From the IMG/VR virus record IMGVR_UViG_3300020138_000001, positions 1 to 60,871 of that record: a stretch of DNA of 60,871 bases; one strand, written 5' to 3'. The notes under the pieces were generated by a model that saw nothing but the letters and a program-made list of their open reading frames with translations, was not told the DNA's origin and did no database searches. Below, in pieces: positions 3,644 to 59,453 of the stretch (position 1 is its first letter; each line of letters opens with the position of its first letter). This stretch comes from a virus. The translations under genes were made by a program, and so were the position numbers.

Positions 3644-5452
3644 ATGCCGAAAAACAGTGGAGGCGGGTTCGACCTGCCAGACGACCCCAAGGAATTGAAC
3701 GCTCGACTGGCGGAGATGAACGACGCTGAGCTGTCGGAGCTGTTGACGAAGTTGGGCGACGCCTTCGATGACAAGTACGGCGACGGCACCGGGCTGACGG
3801 ATGAGGCGCTGACCGAGCTGGAATCTCTCGGGAATCAGATCAAGACTGCTCAGGAGGTTGCGGAAACGCGCGAAACGGAGCGTCAGGAACGTGATCGTCG
3901 TGCTGCCGAACTGCGAAATTCCGTACGTCCATCGGCCGATGCAGACGCGCAGGCGGCCGACGAGAATGCCGGAGACGATGAGCAGTCGGAGGTGCCCGAA
4001 AACGATCGGGAGCCCGTAGCAGCGGCGTCAGACGCTCCGCTTGTGGCAGCGATGCACGCCATGTCGGAGACGGCACAGACCATGCAGGCATTTGCTGCGG
4101 ACTACCTGAAACCAGGCACCGACCTGAACAAGCGCCTCCGTCTGGGAGAGATCGCCAAATACGCTCCAGACGCGGGCGTGCACGAAGAGCGCTCGGAAGC
4201 CGTACTCATCGCTTCCGCTGACGTCCCCGGGTTCACGCAGGGGGGTCGAGTTGAGAACATTCATGCGCTGGCAAAGGCCATGCACAACCGCGCTCGGATG
4301 CTACCGGTCTCGAAGACTGGAGACCCGAATATCTACCCTGTTGCGAGCCTGCAACGAGAGTTCAACTTCACGCTGAACGAGAACTCAACTCCGGAGGAAA
4401 TGAACGCCGTTCTCACCGCTGCGACGGACGTAGAAATTCTCACGGCCGCAGGAGGCTGGTGCGCCCCTTCGGAGATCTCATACGATTTTTTCAATATCGT
4501 ATGTGAAGACGGCATGATTGACCTTCCTTCGGTTGGACTCAACCGGGGCGGCGTGCAGTACCCGACTTCCCCGAGCTTCGGCGATCTCGTGTCGATTCCG
4601 GATATCGTCTGGGAGTGGACGGAGCAGGACGACATCGATGCGGCCGACTCGGACTCGGTATTCAAGCCGTGTGTTCGACTTGAGTGCCCCGAGTTTGTAG
4701 ATCGTCGCGCCGACTGCCACGGATTCTGCGTTACCGCCGGTAACCTAGTGGACTACGCTTATCCGGAGCTAGTAGCCAATTGGCTACGACTGGTGTTCGC
4801 TATTCGTGCCAAAGCCACGAATGCCGGAATCATCGATGTACTGATCAATGGCGGAGGGTCAGGAGACCCGATCACGCCATCGATCGCAGTCGACCACACC
4901 GGACTGCTTGGAGCCACCACATCGGCACTGCTTCAGTCCATCGAATTGAGCATTGTCGACTACCGAGAAAAGTTCTCGATGTGTTCCGACGCCATCATGG
5001 AGGTTGTACTTCCACGCTGGGCAAACGCGGTTGTACGTGCGGACCTGGCAAACCGCGAAGGCATCGACGTATTCGGCGTTACCAACGGCATGATTGCCGA
5101 TTGGTTCAACCTGCGCGGCGCTCGCGTGCAGTTCGTCGGAGACTGGCAGGTTCGCGAGACAGGAGCAGCCGGAACCGCGACGCCAGGTGGCGCGACGCCG
5201 CTGACCACGTGGCCCAACACGATGGATTACCTCGTGTTCGCGCCGGGGACGTTTGTTCGCGGCAACGGCATGTCACTCGACCTCGGTGTCACTCGCGACT
5301 CGGTTCTCAACTCCACGAACGACCACACGGCCGCATGGGCAGAAGACTGCTTTGCGATCCTCAAGCCGGGACATGAGTCCCGCGTGGTATCCGTGGCTCT
5401 GTGCCCATCGGGAGAGATCGGACAGCGTTCGCTCACCTGCGCTGAGGCGTAG
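3644..5452 (+). CDS. Major capsid protein with an acidic, coiled-coil, scaffold-like N-terminal domain
   Basis: ATG (MPKNSGGG) after agaggga; the upstream TTG extension is rejected. 602 aa. The N-terminal ~170 aa are Glu/Asp/Ala-rich, followed by an HK97-type body (AAGGWCAPSE). Confidence 0.7.
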   Translation: MPKNSGGGFDLPDDPKELNARLAEMNDAELSELLTKLGDAFDDKYGDGTGLTDEALTELESLGNQIKTAQEVAETRETERQERDRRAAELRNSVRPSADADAQAADENAGDDEQSEVPENDREPVAAASDAPLVAAMHAMSETAQTMQAFAADYLKPGTDLNKRLRLGEIAKYAPDAGVHEERSEAVLIASADVPGFTQGGRVENIHALAKAMHNRARMLPVSKTGDPNIYPVASLQREFNFTLNENSTPEEMNAVLTAATDVEILTAAGGWCAPSEISYDFFNIVCEDGMIDLPSVGLNRGGVQYPTSPSFGDLVSIPDIVWEWTEQDDIDAADSDSVFKPCVRLECPEFVDRRADCHGFCVTAGNLVDYAYPELVANWLRLVFAIRAKATNAGIIDVLINGGGSGDPITPSIAVDHTGLLGATTSALLQSIELSIVDYREKFSMCSDAIMEVVLPRWANAVVRADLANREGIDVFGVTNGMIADWFNLRGARVQFVGDWQVRETGAAGTATPGGATPLTTWPNTMDYLVFAPGTFVRGNGMSLDLGVTRDSVLNSTNDHTAAWAEDCFAILKPGHESRVVSVALCPSGEIGQRSLTCAEA

Positions 5453-25918: not shown

Positions 25919-26266
25919 CTACACCATGATCGATACCGTGAGAGCGATTATGATTGCGCAGGTTATGAAGTTCTTGAGCGCGTCCATCGGCTGGTACTTC
26001 TTGGGAGCATCGTGCATGTGCGGCAACCGCAGTACCCACCCTCCCCACATCACCGCAGGGATGCCGATCCACCCGACCACATCCCAGGCGCTCTCCGGGG
26101 CCCACGTGAGCGCTACGCACACTGTGATCGTCCCGTACAGGAACGCTCCCGTAGCGATCTCGTTTCGCCGGTTATCGCCTTTGGGCGTCTGTCCGATCAC
26201 TACGAATCCGTACGCCCCTGACAGGAGCATTAGGAAAATCAGTATCAATTGCCAGGCCAGCGCCAT
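25919..26266 (-). CDS. Membrane protein (about 4 TM)
   Basis: 115 aa, hydrophobic throughout. ATG after acgacgaaagga. It lies just downstream of the tRNA array. Confidence 0.6.
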   Translation of the reverse strand: MALAWQLILIFLMLLSGAYGFVVIGQTPKGDNRRNEIATGAFLYGTITVCVALTWAPESAWDVVGWIGIPAVMWGGWVLRLPHMHDAPKKYQPMDALKNFITCAIIIALTVSIMV

Positions 26267-26293
26267 TACTCATCCTTTCGTCGTAGGTCATAG

Positions 26294-26364
26294 AGGCGTG
26301 AACGGGAGTCGAACCCGTCTAACTGGATTTGCAGTCCAGTACCTAACCGCTCGGTCATCACGCC
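26294..26364 (-). tRNA. tRNA-Cys (GCA)
   Basis: Hand fold: acceptor ggcgtga/tcacgcc, T-loop ttcgact, anticodon loop ct-GCA-aa. No encoded CCA. Confidence 0.8.
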
Positions 26365-26483
26365 GTAACGCCGGTAGGCAGGGTTCCCGTGGTCTCGTCA
26401 ACGCCTGGCCGGGCTCTAAGATCGCGGGGCCTTGAGGCTCCGGCGGGCGGCCCCGGGGAGTCTAGAACTCCGGAGCCTTACCG

Positions 26484-26556
26484 TGGACCGTGTCGGATTC
26501 GAACCGACAACCCTCTGATTGCAAATCAGACGCTCTACCATTGGAGCTAACAGCCC
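26484..26556 (-). tRNA. tRNA-Ala (UGC)
   Basis: Acceptor gggctgt/acggtcc with G3:U70, T-loop ttcgaat, anticodon loop tt-TGC-aa. Confidence 0.8.
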
Positions 26557-26645
26557 GTGCGCCGCATGGGAGGACATGGGAGCGACATCCCCACGGGTCG
26601 GAACTTACCCCCGACCATACACACCGTGCACAGCGTGCGTATCCG

Positions 26646-26718
26646 TGCACCGAGAAGGACTCGAACCTTCGACCAACGGTGTGTAAAACCGCCGCTCTTG
26701 CCGCTGAGCTACCGGTGC
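26646..26718 (-). tRNA. tRNA-Val (UAC)
   Basis: Acceptor gcaccgg/tcggtgc, T-loop ttcgagt, anticodon loop tt-TAC-ac. Confidence 0.8.
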
Positions 26719-26719
26719 G

Positions 26720-26792
26720 TGCAGCATCCGGGAATCGAACCCGGGTCTATGAGCCTGAAGCTCATCGCATTGCCCATTCATGCTGATGCCGC
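26720..26792 (-). tRNA. tRNA with anticodon UCA (opal-suppressor-like or UGA-reading)
   Basis: 73 nt, class I. Acceptor gcggcat/atgctgc, D stem gcat/atgc, perfect anticodon stem atgag/ctcat, loop ct-TCA-gg, T arm ccggg-ttcgatt-cccgg, A73. Confidence 0.65.
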
Positions 26793-26793
26793 G

Positions 26794-26868
26794 TAGCGAG
26801 CCCGAGATTTGAACTCGGAACCACGATCGTATCAGGATCGCGCTCTAACCAAATTGAGCTAACTCGCC
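26794..26868 (-). tRNA. tRNA-Ile (GAU)
   Basis: Anticodon stem cgatc/gatcg, loop ct-GAT-ac, T-loop ttcaaat. Confidence 0.8.
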
Positions 26869-26869
26869 G

Positions 26870-26943
26870 TACCTCGCGCAGGATTCGAACCCGCGACCGC
26901 AGAGGGTAGAAGCCTCCGGCTCTGTCCACTGAGCTAGCGAGGT
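26870..26943 (-). tRNA. tRNA-Arg (UCU)
   Basis: Perfect acceptor acctcgc/gcgaggt, loop ct-TCT-ac, T-loop ttcgaat. Confidence 0.75.
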
Positions 26944-27012
26944 GTGCGGTCCGCCCGTCGCCTACGAAACGAACCGGGCGGACCTTCATTCCTGCAACTC
27001 CCGAAGGAGCTG

Positions 27013-45122: not shown

Positions 45123-45198
45123 ACTCCGCAGACGATGACGGGGGTACCCGCTTGCGGGGCGCTCCGGGGGTCGTGTATATTCGAATCATGCGCCGCTC

Positions 45199-45416
45199 GG
45201 AGTGACGCGTTTCGGTTACTTCAGGGTTCGACTCCCAACATCACGCATGGTGCCGTGATGCTCATCGAAAGGTGAGGGCAAGCGATCCGAGACCAACCGG
45301 ATTCGAGCGGCGGTAATACAGCGTTGAGCAGTCGTAACGGCGACACGCTCATCAGAAGGTTTCTGATTCGTACCGGGAATCTTCGATCACTGGGCTTCGG
45401 CCCGGTGATGCTGGGC
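45199..45416 (+). ncRNA. Structured non-coding region, first copy of the GGAGTGA-N-TTCGGTTACTTC motif (possible Y-RNA-like RNA or leader)
   Basis: No credible ORF. Motif at 45199..45222, a partial T-loop-like gggttcgactccc, and hairpin atcactgggc-ttcg-gcccggtgat at its end. Confidence 0.3.
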
Positions 45417-45605
45417 GGAGTGAAGATTTCGGTTACTTCAACGGAAACCGACGGTTGCGGGTTCGAATCCCGTCCCATGACAGTGTCATGCGGTAGCTCA
45501 AATGGCAGAGCTTCGGTAAAAATGCGCCGAGATCGATGTGATTCGCCCAGCACTAAAATTTCACACCCTCCGGTGTGACGCGTGGGGATACTTCACCTGT
45601 TTTTG
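45417..45605 (+). ncRNA. YrlA-type Y RNA candidate with a permuted tRNA-like module
   Basis: 5' ggagtgaag pairs with 3' cttcacc and is followed by a tgttttt run. T arm 45457..45473 (gcggg-ttcgaat-cccgt), acceptor-like hairpin 45476..45490, D arm 45496..45511 (gctc-aaatggca-gagc). Confidence 0.5.
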
Positions 45606-45656
45606 CAAACTGGTCCCAAACGCCCCGCGCAACGTGAATCGGAGGATGCACAAGCA

Positions 45657-45781
45657 GTGTGCGGAGTGACGAGTTCGGTTACTTCGCCTATTAAGCGAGA
45701 GGTTGCGGGTTCGAATCCCGCTCGCTGGCTTCGGTTGGCGGTAGCTCAATGGTAGAGCGCTACATTTCCGCACTCATTTTG
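45657..45781 (+). ncRNA. YrlA-type Y RNA candidate with a permuted tRNA-like module
   Basis: Terminal stem gtgcgga (45659) / tccgcac (45767) followed by tcatttt. T arm 45705..45721, acceptor-like stem closed by a UUCG loop at 45723..45740, D arm 45744..45758. Confidence 0.5.
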
Positions 45782-45813
45782 ATTCGCGCACTGCTTGTGA
45801 TGTCCTCCGGAAG

Positions 45814-47523
45814 ATGAGAGAAGAGGACACATTGACGAAGTTCAACAAGGCGCGACAGGGTACGACGCCTAGATCCCCCATCGCCAGCGCAACGCAAGCG
45901 CGGTTCCAGACTGCTGAAGGCGCGCAGGGATTCAAGCGCTCCGCTCAGGGAGAGTTGTTCGTACTGGGTTCGGGCCGATTCTTCGGAGAGGCATCGTTCT
46001 ACGAGTCGGCGCACGACGGGGCCGACCGATTCCGCACGCTCGTTCATGAAGTCGCGTTGAGTAATCCCGAGTGGCTTGTGCGGTTCCTGAAGTGGCTTCG
46101 AACGGAAGCCAACATCCGCACGGCCGCGATTGTTGGTGCTGTTGAGTACGTGCGCGCCATGCAGCGCCCGGAGGCTGCCGATGCCGTCGCCATCCGCGAC
46201 GGCGTGTGCCGAAGCGAGATCACGCCGCGCGCCGTGGTGCGTTCCGTCCTCCAGCGCGCCGATGAGCCCGGCGAGATGATCGCTTACTACCTCCAGCGTT
46301 ACGGCCGCTCGATTCCGCATGCGATGAAGCGAGGCATTGCCGACGCCATCACCGGAATCAGAACCGGCCGAGACCCGCTGTACTCCGAGTACAGCGTGCT
46401 GAAGTACGATACCCCTTCGCACGGAGTGCGTTTCGGGGACGTGGTGGAGCTGGTGTGCCCGGCAACAGTGCACCCATCGATTCGTGGAACGGATCAGGGA
46501 AATCTGATCAAGCACGTCATCGATCGTCGTCACGGCCGCGACGAGATTCCCGAAGTTTTCGACATGCTCACCGACAACGCGCAGATTCGCGCCCACGCGG
46601 CGCGGTACCCTGCGACCCTGCTCGATCCCGAACGTCTCAAGGCGGCCGGGCTCACGTGGGAAGACGCGCTATCGCTCGGCGGGTCGAAGCTCGACAAGCG
46701 CAAGCTGTGGGAATCGCTGATCGATGCCGATGCGCTCGGTTACATGGCACTGTTGCGCAACCTGCGGGCGTTCGATGAGGCGGGCGTCTCGGTCTACCAT
46801 GCGGCTAAGGTGGCATCGATCCTGAGAAACCCTCATCGCGTGCGGAAGGCGCGACAACTGCCGTTTCGGTTCTTCACCGCCGCCAAGGAAGCGACCGCTC
46901 CGCGATGGGCTCACGCGCTCGAACAGGCGTTGAACATTTCCACGGAGAACATTCCGGAGTTGCCGGGACGAACGCTGGTCCTGGTAGACACGTCGGGGTC
47001 GATGCAGTGGACGAACCTGTCAGCACGTTCGGGGGTCAGCTTGGTTGACACGGCGGCGCTGTTCGGCGTCGCGTTGTCGATGCACGCTGCTGATGTGGAC
47101 CTGTACGGGTTCGCAGACAGCGTGTTCAAGGCGCAGGTGTCGAAGGGCGGTTCAGTGCTTCGTCAGACGGAGAAGATGACGGCCCGCGTAGGTACGGCCG
47201 GGAACGGTACGCGGATTGCGGAGAGCTTGAAGCGGACGTTCCGAGGACATGACCGCGTCGTGATCTTCACGGACATGCAGACGATGCCGGACGACGGCAC
47301 AATGCCGTACTACGCGTACCACGTGGGGAACGTGAGCACGGCGGTACCGCCCAATGTGCCGATTTACGCATGGAACCTCGCAGGGTACGAAGCGTCGATG
47401 ATGCCCACCGGGTCGGACAACCGGCATGAGTTCGGCGGGTTCTCGGACTCGGCCTTCTCGACCATGCAGACGCTCGAAGCCGGTCGGGACGGGCGTTGGC
47501 CCTGGGAAGCATCGAAGGGGTAG
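45814..47523 (+). CDS. rsr: Ro60 orthologue (Rsr): TROVE domain plus a C-terminal vWA domain
   Basis: 569 aa. The N-terminus has TROVE-like FYESAHDG...WLVRFLKWLRTEANIR, and the C-terminus has the MIDAS motif LVLVDTSGSMQ. Confidence 0.8.
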   Translation: MREEDTLTKFNKARQGTTPRSPIASATQARFQTAEGAQGFKRSAQGELFVLGSGRFFGEASFYESAHDGADRFRTLVHEVALSNPEWLVRFLKWLRTEANIRTAAIVGAVEYVRAMQRPEAADAVAIRDGVCRSEITPRAVVRSVLQRADEPGEMIAYYLQRYGRSIPHAMKRGIADAITGIRTGRDPLYSEYSVLKYDTPSHGVRFGDVVELVCPATVHPSIRGTDQGNLIKHVIDRRHGRDEIPEVFDMLTDNAQIRAHAARYPATLLDPERLKAAGLTWEDALSLGGSKLDKRKLWESLIDADALGYMALLRNLRAFDEAGVSVYHAAKVASILRNPHRVRKARQLPFRFFTAAKEATAPRWAHALEQALNISTENIPELPGRTLVLVDTSGSMQWTNLSARSGVSLVDTAALFGVALSMHAADVDLYGFADSVFKAQVSKGGSVLRQTEKMTARVGTAGNGTRIAESLKRTFRGHDRVVIFTDMQTMPDDGTMPYYAYHVGNVSTAVPPNVPIYAWNLAGYEASMMPTGSDNRHEFGGFSDSAFSTMQTLEAGRDGRWPWEASKG

Positions 47524-58525: not shown

Positions 58526-58759
58526 ATGAACGAAGAGATTGCGCACCGGTTCGCTTACCATCCGCCGAAGAACGAAGCGATGATCAAAGCACACGAGAGC
58601 GTGCGGGCCCTCCTAGGAGACGTCGCACAGGCGCTGGATGAGCTGCTACCCGACGACCGCCCCAGGGAGAAGGCACGGGTTCAGACGAACTTGGAAGACG
58701 CGATGATGAACGCGAACGCGGCAATCGCTCGAAGCCGGGAAGGGATCGACCATGTCTAG
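58526..58759 (+). CDS. Hypothetical protein (77 aa), first gene of the lysis-region operon
   Basis: HRFAYHPP...NANAAIA helical protein. No function assigned. Confidence 0.5.
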   Translation: MNEEIAHRFAYHPPKNEAMIKAHESVRALLGDVAQALDELLPDDRPREKARVQTNLEDAMMNANAAIARSREGIDHV

Positions 58760-59453
58760 CTGGAGACTGGCGAAGAGCATCCAACGCCTGAAAGACGAGA
58801 TCGAATCGAAACATCGAGGCACTACATTTTGGACGATCGGAGACGAAGCACACCAATCTACCTGGTCGGACCACAATCCGAGTGAGTGCTGTGACGTAGT
58901 GTGCGCGGGCGACGTCAAGGGCAATGGTGGCCTGAACCTATCAAACTTCGTGAATCACCTGATTACGAAACCACATCCGAACTTGCGGTATGTCATCTAC
59001 AACCGCAAGATCTATCAGCGTAAGAACGGATGGCGGGCAGAGAACTACAACGGGCGGAACGCACACGCTGACCACGTCCATGTGTCCGTGGGCAACGGTC
59101 CGGACGGCCGGAGCACCAGCAACTACGACAGCACTGCGTCGTGGGGGATCGCAGACATCAGCTCGAACCCGCCTCCCAAGCCATCAGTACCCGCATCGAA
59201 CTGGACTCAGGAAGTGATCATGGCGCTACCAACACTGCGCGAAGGCGCGAAGGGTGCGGACGTCGGACGTCTGCAAGGACTGCTCGTTGCGAACGGCTAT
59301 AAGGATTCAGCGATCGATCATATTTTCGGATCGAAAACCGACAAGGCACTACGTCGATTCCAGAAGGACAAAAAAGTACGCAACTCTGTAACGAAGGGAA
59401 ACGGCGACGGAATCGCCGGTCGCTATAGCTGGACGGCGTTGCTAGGCGAATAG
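58752..59453 (+). CDS. Endolysin: M15-type zinc peptidase domain plus a PG_binding_1 domain
   Basis: HQSTWSDH...AHADHVHVS (H..D/HxH zinc ligands) and C-terminal LREGAKGADVGRLQGLLVANGY...KTDKALRRFQ. Confidence 0.75.
   Translation: MSSWRLAKSIQRLKDEIESKHRGTTFWTIGDEAHQSTWSDHNPSECCDVVCAGDVKGNGGLNLSNFVNHLITKPHPNLRYVIYNRKIYQRKNGWRAENYNGRNAHADHVHVSVGNGPDGRSTSNYDSTASWGIADISSNPPPKPSVPASNWTQEVIMALPTLREGAKGADVGRLQGLLVANGYKDSAIDHIFGSKTDKALRRFQKDKKVRNSVTKGNGDGIAGRYSWTALLGE

Follow-up and report, generated by a model that had tools for sequence, protein, structure and literature searches.

Pairs of Ro60 and Y RNA have been on record in phages since 2003 and 2014, and 22 phages with Ro were already listed by Chen et al. 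2014 (PMC4201824). The structure of a phage Ro60 and its binding to the host PNPase were published in 2025 (PMC12135203). Both components of the Ro60-Yrl1/Yrl2 complexes of Thermus phage phiLo (PDB 9KOP, 9L5Y) are phage-encoded, the protein consists of a TROVE ring and a vWA domain with a metal-binding MIDAS, and Ro60 with the two upstream Yrl RNAs binds host PNPase and slows it in vitro. The Yrl RNAs are described there as stem-bulge-stem structures with one or two hairpins, and the parts of the report used here mention no tRNA-like domain. In cellular bacteria, Rsr-Yrn1-PNPase of D. radiodurans and Rsr-YrlA-PNPase of Salmonella (RYPER) combine a ring protein with a tRNA-mimicking tether RNA, and the Salmonella rsr-yrlBA-rtcBA operon has been linked to tRNA damage (PMC7790460). 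Rsr-YrlA/YrlB pairs of actinobacteria are known from M. smegmatis, Streptosporangium and Gordonia (PMC4201824), with a 7-bp stem in the RNA that allows cleavage of M. smegmatis YrlA by RNase P (PMC4201824).

The window analyzed in this study, a stretch of 60,871 nucleotides, represents the complete, circular genome of a phage, about 60.7 kb long. The phage is uncultured and probably actinobacterial. One locus in this genome is a further example of the known Ro60/Y-RNA module of bacteria and phages and not a new type of system. We are highly confident that it specifies a Ro60/Y-RNA RNP, and the whole reading, in which an actinobacterial rsr-yrlA-type phage RNP tethers or modulates host decay, is given a probability of roughly 0.6. 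The points of interest are an expanded array of Y RNAs and a hairpin resembling an anticodon arm.

The Ro60/Rsr homologue is encoded on the + strand at 45814..47523, exactly the 569-aa ORF named in the original prediction, and the MIDAS DxSxS motif LVLVDTSGSMQ occupies residues 388-398 (46975..47007, + strand). A Shine-Dalgarno-like AGAGGA precedes the TTG at 45832 and the N-terminus of the relatives reads MTKFN, from which this TTG is probably the true start, with a product of 563 aa. The domain layout comprises a TROVE/HEAT-repeat ring at about aa 25-380 and a vWA domain at about aa 384-545. In profile searches the TROVE assignment held (Pfam PF05731, E=3e-19, 69.9 bits, cut-off 23), whereas the Pfam vWA models stayed below their cut-offs (vWA_Ro60, 16.4 bits against 27.7). 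A match to PHROG 850, 'RNA-binding protein', covers residues 26-558 (E=9e-47), and the sequence alignment to the phage Ro60 crystal structure 9KOP spans both domains (E=3e-23). Against the NCBIfam equivalog NF041674, 'RNA-binding protein Rsr', which has a cut-off of 900 bits, the protein scored 17.2 bits in a match confined to residues 360-490, and it is therefore not to be named as that equivalog; the model is narrow, and its failure has no bearing on membership in the wider Ro60 family.

Because the NCBIfam Rsr and Pfam vWA profiles fell below cut-off, structure prediction and comparison with the PDB were used instead. The AlphaFold2 model (pLDDT 83.2, pTM 0.83) has a predicted fold of a closed ring of alpha-helical repeats capped by the vWA domain. 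Foldseek returned 13 PDB matches at E<=1e-3, every one a full-length Ro60/Rsr, from phage, frog, human and Deinococcus, with target-normalised TM of 0.66-0.74 over 533-602 aligned columns. Profile and structure search both support the TROVE fold. The complete MIDAS (D392, S394, S396, T466, D487) is invariant among 38 homologues, as are many basic residues, and it aligns with the Ca2+ ligands D322/S324/T391/D416 reported for phiLo Ro60 (9KOP; PMC12135203), so that the predicted Ro60 homologue with an intact vWA/MIDAS domain stands. K172/R173 align with K141/K142 of phiLo Ro60, residues which contact Y RNA and lower binding when mutated (PMC12135203). The dN/dS value is 0.15 against a 92%-identical relative and 0.15-0.36 over the comparisons made; purifying selection acts on ORF 45814-47523, which is a real gene.

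A total of four Y-RNA-like modules were found on the + strand, 20-620 nt 5' of the Ro60 gene. The tRNA-mimicking RNA partners that had been predicted next to the gene were thus recovered, by Rfam YrlA, by covariation and by R1, a custom model built from Y4. A same-strand Y RNA within 4 kb of the gene, as used by Chen et al. 2014 to recognise such pairs (PMC4201824), is therefore present in the window. The entire array is preceded by a promoter-like element (45152..45181, + strand) with TTGCGG, an 18-nt spacer and TATATT with TG ahead, which may act as its promoter. The block GGTACCCGnTTGC...CGTGTATATTCGAATCATGC is near-invariant in 10 related phage loci, whereas its flanks diverge. The element was not listed by the sigma-70 scan since its -35 hexamer matches at just 3/6 positions. 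Between Y4 and the Ro60 ORF the terminator scan listed no + strand terminator.

The first module, Y1 (45192..45311, + strand; R1 match 45191-45321, 40.6 bits, E=3e-7), consists of an outer stem, an internal loop CGGAGUG / GAUUCG, an inner stem and a UACUUC motif, and its apical part, with a T-arm-like GGGUUCGACUCCC and two hairpins, forms a degenerate tRNA-like domain. Y2 (45410..45551, + strand) is a canonical YrlA-type Y RNA, matched over its full length by Rfam YrlA (45426-45536, 36 bits, E=1.8e-5) and by R1 (45409-45561, 85.1 bits, E=1e-17), in which the open 'anticodon stem' (ACCGA/UCGGU) connects the Ro-binding double stem to a T arm, an acceptor-like hairpin that is closed, and a D arm. 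Y3 (45567..45645, + strand) is a minimal YrlB-like module identified from RNAalifold and conserved motifs; it shares the outer stem, internal loop, inner stem and UACUUC with the other modules and ends in a small apical hairpin without a tRNA-like domain. Y4 (45655..45793, + strand) is again of the YrlA type. After its double stem comes a closed hairpin of 5 bp whose 7-nt loop, CUAUUAA, resembles an anticodon loop. A variable loop of 5 nt and a T arm follow, then an acceptor-like stem of 7-8 bp closed by UUCG, and finally U8-A9 and a D arm; an A15:U48 Levitt pair is possible. ARAGORN labels the segment 45657-45730 as 'tRNA-Asn(att)', Rfam YrlA matches it in part, at 45698-45761 (33.6 bits), and R1 scores 141.7 bits. 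By its layout Y4 mimics a complete circularly permuted tRNA; Y2 and Y4 are full tRNA mimics, Y1 a partial one and Y3 a minimal hairpin.

Folding of single sequences is unremarkable for Y1 and Y2 (z about -0.5 against shuffled sequences) and gives a mildly more stable Y4 (z = -2.1), and covariation was therefore used as the evidence for structure. Among 64 RNAs homologous to Y4, 94.3% of cells are paired and 31 of the 39 pairs show compensatory change; the covariation score of 0.586, compared with at most 0.093 for slid partners, was reached by 0 of 500 shuffles. Every helix of the YrlA-type architecture is backed by these sequences. The hairpin before the T arm had been missed by RNAalifold because MAFFT had shifted it by one column, and it was added by hand to the structure before R1 was built. 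For Y1 and Y3 RNAalifold worked with few sequences: seven relatives yield 24 pairs for Y1, with compensatory changes in 8, and eight relatives yield 16 pairs for Y3, with compensatory changes in 3 and with GUGAC / GAAU and UACUUC conserved. Y3 is the weakest supported of the four modules.

Neither Y2 (36 bits) nor the Y4 core (33.6) attains the gathering score of 69 of Rfam YrlA (RF02553), with E of about 1e-5 to 1e-4, and the Y RNAs of six isolated actinophages likewise stay below it (30.7-47 bits). Y2 and Y4 do show the YrlA architecture, with T loops reading GGUUCGAAUCC, a D arm of the UAGCUCAAUGG type, U8-A9 and the A15:U48 option. On the basis of this architecture and the covariation, they are filed as actinobacterial-type YrlA-like RNAs and not as members by the Rfam threshold. 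The CG(A/G)AG motif at the internal loop corresponds to the published GNCGAAN0-1G / CGAA Ro-binding motif (PMC4201824, PMC12135203). TACTTC (UACUUC in the RNA), which the Rfam consensus alignment had suggested as the Ro-binding motif, was rejected, since the relatives show a further outer stem with CG(A/G)AGUG / GAUUCG that fits GNCGAAN0-1G better. UACUUC is left as a conserved motif without explanation.

Compared with the described systems, the protein finds both its best structural and its best PDB sequence match in phiLo Ro60, at an identity of just 22%. Both phages place Y-like RNAs immediately 5' of the gene on the same strand with a CGAA-type motif at the internal loop; the window, however, has four modules, two with full tRNA-like domains, and PNPase binding, reported for phiLo (PMC12135203), would be expected here by likeness to it. 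The D. radiodurans structure 2nvo is among the fold matches, but identity to Rsr of the D. radiodurans/Salmonella type is 16% in the fold search, and rtcB and rtcA are not near the window gene. The canonical Salmonella YrlA is without an anticodon loop (bioRxiv 10.1101/312249), whereas Y4 has an anticodon-like one. The Y RNA architecture is that of the actinobacterial chromosomal Y RNA, with the same hairpin before the T arm and 7-bp acceptor-like stem. The two chromosomal loci examined are cellular and have one or two Y RNAs, in contrast to four modules (five in some relatives) and one promoter-like element in the phage.

By analogy with these systems, the RNP may work as follows. The promoter-like element would give rise to a single transcript with the four Y-RNA-like modules followed by the Ro60 mRNA, and the Y RNAs would be cut out of it. 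With the same double-stem Ro-binding module, which has CG(A/G)AG at an internal loop, each of them would dock on the outside of the Ro60 ring, and the distal module that it exposes would be its own: a tRNA mimic in two of them, a partial mimic in one and a minimal hairpin in the remaining one. Through these distal modules the ring could be linked to an effector of the host that binds tRNA or other RNA, most likely PNPase, by analogy to D. radiodurans, Salmonella and phiLo (PMC12135203). Structured RNAs would be threaded by their 3' ends through the basic central cavity. In this way the complex would redirect or damp the 3'-5' decay of structured RNAs by the host during infection, with tRNA precursors, tRNA halves and rRNA as examples, and this could matter to a phage expressing 28 tRNAs of its own. 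That tethering or modulating a host exoribonuclease is the main action is a tentative proposal, held at somewhat less than even odds. The direction of the effect is not fixed by precedent, since the complex enhances decay in D. radiodurans and attenuates it in phiLo. PNPase, RtcB, RNA ligase and kinase, as partners in RNA repair or decay, were absent from the 40 window ORFs screened, and any effector must therefore be supplied by the host. As a test case the locus is compact and well defined: a single Ro60 gene and four Y RNAs of different structure stand behind one promoter-like element, in a genome of about 60.7 kb that has a complete set of tRNAs and lacks RNA-repair genes among the screened ORFs.

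Relatives of the Ro60 protein were found by tblastn in 98 GenBank phage records from many host genera, and the original prediction, which had placed such pairs in some bacteria and a few mycobacteriophages, was too narrow in this respect. 'Ro-like RNA binding protein' is a routine annotation in actinophages. Full-length homologues with 37-40% identity are found in Streptomyces phages GiJojo, BRock and Quantum, Arthrobacter phage Atuin and Gordonia phages Neville and VanLee; YrlA-like RNAs adjoin the gene in all six, several of which have large tRNA sets, but their genomes measure 76-200 kb and show no DNA-level match to the window. A megablast search of GenBank phages with the locus and with 25 kb of the window gave zero matches, and consequently no close isolated relative could be used for comparison. 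Full-length same-strand R1 matches precede the Ro gene in 74 of 81 related loci, ending at a median of 30 nt before it, and the chromosomal rsr loci of Streptosporangium and Stackebrandtia are among these 74.

The protein shares 47-50% identity with TROVE proteins of actinomycete chromosomes and less, 37-40%, with those of isolated actinophages, and its Y RNAs are of the type found in host chromosomes, as would be the case if the module were a passenger that had lately come from an actinobacterial host and did little or nothing in the lytic cycle. We regard this reading as highly improbable. Gene and array keep their position throughout a clade of uncultured phages with genomes of about 58-65 kb, in members whose protein identity falls to 56%; the array has grown to four or five modules in this clade, compared with one or two detected in each of the two chromosomal loci examined; and the dN/dS range given above speaks against passenger status.

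The tRNA genes form an array at 26293..29931 on the - strand. The predicted 28 genes with a full set were confirmed by ARAGORN, which finds tRNAs for all 20 amino acids and, in addition, one whose anticodon is UCA; at the gathering score of its tRNA model, Rfam supports 25 of the 28. A permuted 'tmRNA' reported by ARAGORN at 26022-26576 was rejected, as it overlaps two tRNA genes and is without Rfam tmRNA support. The array and the Ro/Y module share one genome, but they lie 16 kb apart on opposite strands in separate transcription units. The genomic tie between such modules and tRNA arrays is nevertheless real and is stronger in the relatives than in the window. Among 50 metagenomic relatives, 14 have a tRNA array directly 5' of the Y RNA and the Ro gene, the Ro gene is found inside the tRNA array in GiJojo, BRock and Atuin, and the order tRNA array, Y RNA, Ro gene recurs in several soil metagenomic lineages and in isolated actinophages.

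One explanation of this tie is quality control of the phage's own noncoding RNA, in which the Ro60 cavity would chaperone or triage misfolded or mis-processed tRNA precursors and the Y RNAs would only gate the cavity. Animal Ro60 binds misfolded pre-5S rRNA and similar RNAs, with PDB 2i91 and 9nep among the structural matches, and tRNA-rich phages repeatedly carry Ro-like genes; phages with large tRNA arrays, however, commonly do without Ro. Chromosomal homologues are also known that have no tRNA array nearby. Although access to the cavity is blocked by Y RNA in D. radiodurans (PMC4201824), such quality control is judged to be quite unlikely.

A role in tRNA surveillance or anti-defence, as put forward in the original prediction, is plausible and already has a place in the literature. 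In Hughes et al. 2020 it was proposed that YrlA inhibits an anticodon nuclease by competition, or alternatively that Rsr/Y RNA acts in tRNA decay (PMC7790460). Applied to this locus, tRNA-like Y RNAs held by Ro60 would bait or inhibit tRNA-targeting nucleases, or the ring would capture cleaved tRNA ends, and the 28 phage tRNAs and translation would be protected. Y4, with its hairpin before the T arm in anticodon-arm geometry (5-bp stem, 7-nt loop), would be the best candidate for such a decoy. Across the lineage the loop keeps U33, R37 and A38 (85%, 88% and 100%, respectively, with C32 at 73%), whereas the 'anticodon' triplet varies freely among relatives and positions 34-35 are near random. 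PARIS AriB cleaves three tRNAs, and the commonest triplets, GUU, UGU and UUU, correspond to their anticodons (PMC12409363), a coincidence drawn from 41 phylogenetically related sequences. Since the same hairpin also occurs in the rsr loci of actinomycete chromosomes, outside phages, it is no adaptation peculiar to phages, and conserved flanks around a free triplet may be a mere relic of descent from a tRNA dimer. Placement next to tRNA genes would suit a decoy, and coliphage Bas63, an enterobacterial phage, provides a parallel: its gp130 has a Ro60-like structure, is encoded directly 5' of a run of tRNA genes, and counters the ppl defence by genetic evidence from a 2024 PhageMaP preprint (PMC11482910). 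That defence is nevertheless proposed to degrade DNA and not tRNA (PMC11482910). Altogether, the decoy is considered unlikely as the explanation of this locus.

A broader form of the decoy idea takes the Y RNAs as permuted tRNA mimics whose array of four or five members makes up, with the Ro60 ring, a multi-specific bait or shield against tRNA-targeting immune nucleases. We consider it distinctly improbable; if true, phage Ro60 would gain a defined role and its recurrent placement by tRNA arrays would be explained. The hairpin resembling an anticodon arm fits the proposed tRNA-dimer origin of Y RNAs and makes the decoy idea testable.

Y RNAs of this kind are missed or mislabelled by standard pipelines, falling below the Rfam threshold or being called as tRNA, in the window and in eight metagenomic loci. 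In the six isolated actinophages they are unannotated in the stretches examined, and two GenBank 'tRNA-Arg' features (VanLee gene 125 and GiJojo gene 29) overlap a YrlA-like Y RNA. As a result of such mislabelling, tRNA counts in these phages can be inflated.

The predicted 569-aa ORF was found exactly at 45814-47523 on the plus strand. GC bias at third codon positions is strong in this gene (GC3 0.77 versus GC2 0.49), and 3971 homologues of its product were detected at E<=1e-10 among the candidates scored. The dN/dS ratio is 0.15 against a 92%-identical relative and 0.29-0.36 against more distant relatives. The Ro gene is thus functional rather than a chance ORF. Because relatives start with MTKFN, to which a TTG codon at 45832 is aligned in the window, and because AGAGGA precedes this codon, the true product probably starts at 45832 and comprises 563 aa. 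The first 14 residues of the 569-aa ORF form the sole long low-confidence stretch in the AlphaFold2 model.

Profile searches gave a significant Pfam TROVE match, limited to residues 281-357, but the vWA profiles stayed under their cut-offs. PHROG 850 matches the full length of the protein, and the structures 9KOP and 9L5Y, which are Ro60 from Thermus phage phiLo (PMC12135203), match its sequence across both domains. The AlphaFold2 model, built on a 38-sequence alignment, reached pLDDT 83.2 and pTM 0.83. Comparison of this model with the PDB returned 13 matches at E<=1e-3, exclusively Ro60/Rsr proteins from phage, Xenopus, human and Deinococcus, followed by isolated vWA domains at E>0.01, which supports the expected TROVE fold. 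The MIDAS residues D392, S394, S396, T466 and D487 are invariant in the alignment, and their counterparts are the Ca2+ ligands of 9KOP (PMC12135203). K141 and K142 of phiLo, which are among the basic residues whose mutation weakens binding of the RNA Yrl2 (PMC12135203), align with the invariant K172 and with R173. The original prediction of a phage Ro60 orthologue with an intact vWA/MIDAS domain therefore stands as to homology and the intact vWA/MIDAS domain, but not as to strict orthology; we place the protein in the actinobacterial Rsr clade instead. It failed the NCBIfam Rsr equivalog model with 17 bits versus 900.

Two sub-threshold Rfam YrlA matches lie immediately 5' of the Ro gene on the same strand, and the second of them includes the "tRNA-Asn(att)" that ARAGORN called at 45657-45730. 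The 900 nt preceding the Ro gene were aligned from ten related phage loci. A promoter-like block (45152-45181, plus strand) is near-invariant in this alignment. After this block come tandemly arrayed modules, four of them in the window and five in several of the relatives. The window modules, all on the plus strand, are Y1 (45192-45311) with a T-arm-like element and two hairpins, Y2 (45410-45551), which is a canonical YrlA, the minimal Y3 (45567-45645), and Y4 (45655-45793), which possesses a closed hairpin, a variable loop, a T arm, an acceptor-like stem of 7-8 bp with UUCG closing it, and a D arm. The Rfam matches and aligned modules supply the anticipated Y-RNA partner. All modules share an outer stem, at the end of which CG(A/G)A pairs with UUCG; an internal loop in which GUG(A/C) faces (U)GA; an inner stem; and the motif (U/A)UACUUC. 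This base has the stem-loop-stem design of Ro-binding modules, and its CG(A/G)AG is the counterpart of the published GNCGAAN0-1G / CGAA motif (PMC4201824, PMC12135203). UACUUC (45217, 45434, 45589 and 45680, plus strand) is conserved where the inner stem ends distally, in every module and all relatives, even in the module lacking a tRNA-like domain; the hairpin stem of Y4-type modules begins with the final three bases of this hexamer. The extra Y-like module of five-module relatives sits between Y1 and Y2, where the window (45320-45405, plus strand) retains only a degenerate remnant with GAUUCG and a GC-rich hairpin, which suggests module loss.

A custom covariance model, R1, was built from eight Y4 homologues and searched against both strands of 85 loci (about 446 kb). 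Long matches are always on the strand of the Ro gene. Among 81 loci for which 200 nt or more of upstream sequence was available, 74 have at least one such match upstream of the gene, with a median end 30 nt before it, and 29 loci have two or three. The full-length matches in the window are Y4, Y2 and Y1 only; the remainder are partial and span neighbouring tRNA genes, a false-positive class described by Chen et al. (PMC4201824). Across the 64 RNAs matched, pairing holds in 94.3% of cells, and compensatory changes occur at 31 of 39 pairs; the covariation score of 0.586, versus at most 0.093 with slid partners, was reached by none of 500 shuffles. A caveat to these figures is that the model itself guided the alignment. 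R1-type RNAs also occur 43 nt and 31 nt upstream of the chromosomal Ro genes of Streptosporangium and Stackebrandtia, respectively, whose neighbours are ordinary cellular genes. Based on the R1 search, the covariation and these chromosomal loci, the phage module is the rsr-yrlA module of actinobacteria, in which the RNA array has expanded. This expansion, conservation and purifying selection make a neutral passenger gene unlikely. Best supported, because of homology and the phiLo biochemistry (PMC12135203), is a Ro60/Y-RNA particle that would act via a host factor, most likely PNPase. The Y RNAs would tether the Ro60 ring to this factor and thereby alter structured-RNA decay, the direction of the effect being uncertain.

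The hairpin 5' of the T arm was named V by Chen et al. (PMC4201824). In 41 of the 64 matched RNAs its loop is a clean 7 nt; in these it has a 5-bp stem, and the loop carries C32 (73%), U33 (85%), a purine at 37 (88%) and A38 (100%), with positions 34-35 near random and U at 36 in 71%. The pattern is an anticodon-loop signature, which accounts for the ARAGORN tRNA labels on Y RNAs in the window and eight metagenomic loci. Full-length R1 matches directly upstream of the Ro-like gene overlap gene 125 of Gordonia phage VanLee (tRNA-Arg(tct), locus positions 2213-2284) and gene 29 of Streptomyces phage GiJojo (tRNA-Arg(cct), 2284-2358). Both genes are probably Y-RNA parts, not tRNAs, and their GenBank labels are probably due to the same signature. 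The anticodon-like loop distinguishes these actinobacterial-type RNAs from Salmonella YrlA, which is without one according to its structure paper (bioRxiv 10.1101/312249). Under a model of Y RNA origin from dimeric tRNA transcripts, as cited in that paper, the V hairpin fits as what the first tRNA has kept of its anticodon arm. An anti-defence decoy role is attractive given this loop, the linkage to tRNA arrays, the proposal by Hughes et al. (PMC7790460) and the Bas63 result (PMC11482910), but is weakened by the presence of the V hairpin in chromosomal loci.

The complete set of 28 tRNA genes was borne out, with all 20 amino acids covered. Its proposed association with the Ro/Y pair holds as co-occurrence but not as physical linkage within this genome, since the tRNAs are 16 kb from the Ro gene and on the opposite strand. 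Relatives do show physical linkage: 14 of 50 metagenomic loci have 8-13 same-strand tRNA genes within 1.3 kb upstream, then a Y RNA, then the Ro gene; a Ro-like gene lies inside the tRNA array of GiJojo, BRock and Atuin, and genome announcements list Ro-like proteins for phages with 26-44 tRNAs. Quality control of phage tRNAs by Ro60 is possible. Downstream of the Ro-like gene of Streptomyces phage BRock, a stretch flanked by tRNA genes (locus 4591-4754) matches the Rfam manA RNA with a near-threshold score (49.7 bits versus 55.2). A window tRNA with UCA anticodon (26719-26792, minus strand), labelled tRNA-SeC by ARAGORN, is a possible opal suppressor; TGA is the stop codon in 16 of 42 checked window genes, and the ORF map shows no sign of recoding. 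The permuted tmRNA called by ARAGORN (26022-26576, minus strand) overlaps tRNA-Cys and tRNA-Ala, has no Rfam tmRNA match and is probably a false positive. A small ORF within the array (27149-27532, minus strand) has a weak, below-cut-off Endonuclease VII/HNH-like match (E=4e-4) and is possibly a homing endonuclease.

Mycobacteriophage Ro60 genes were noted in 2003, according to a citation in PMC4201824; YrlA was reported beside Ro60 in 22 phages in 2014 (PMC4201824), and 2025 brought the structure of a phage Ro60 together with its RNAs and host PNPase (PMC12135203). With at most 40% identity to proteins of isolated phages, the Ro locus is a divergent new member of this known system, novel at the DNA level. 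The cited Ro60/Y RNA literature yielded no description of a four- to five-member Y array behind one putative promoter, of the V-hairpin signature, or of the recurrent order of tRNA array, Y RNA and Ro gene; all three are variations inside the known system.

Positions 1-127 of the window are identical to 60745-60871, which shows that the assembly closes into a circle and that the window holds a complete genome of about 60,744 bp. It belongs to a tailed phage, with genes identified for portal, major head and tape measure proteins, large terminase, DNA polymerase, helicase, primase-polymerase, exonuclease, FtsK-like protein, dCTP deaminase, SprT-like protein and Acb2/Tad1-like protein. Megablast of the Ro locus and of 25 kb of the window against GenBank phages returned zero matches; the Ro gene is also present in many uncultured relatives with genomes of 58-65 kb. 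Its closest homologues among isolated phages come from Streptomyces, Arthrobacter and Gordonia phages, and from these, the G+C content of about 59% and the 47-50% identity to chromosomal actinomycete proteins, we infer an actinobacterial host. A 77-aa ORF (58526-58759, plus strand) carries the Pfam Acb2/Tad1 hairpin domain above cut-off (E=2.8e-15). Since this family consists of anti-CBASS/anti-Thoeris nucleotide sponges, the phage carries at least one anti-defence gene of a recognised kind. The ORF adjoins a PG_binding_1-domain gene (58752-59453), a probable endolysin.
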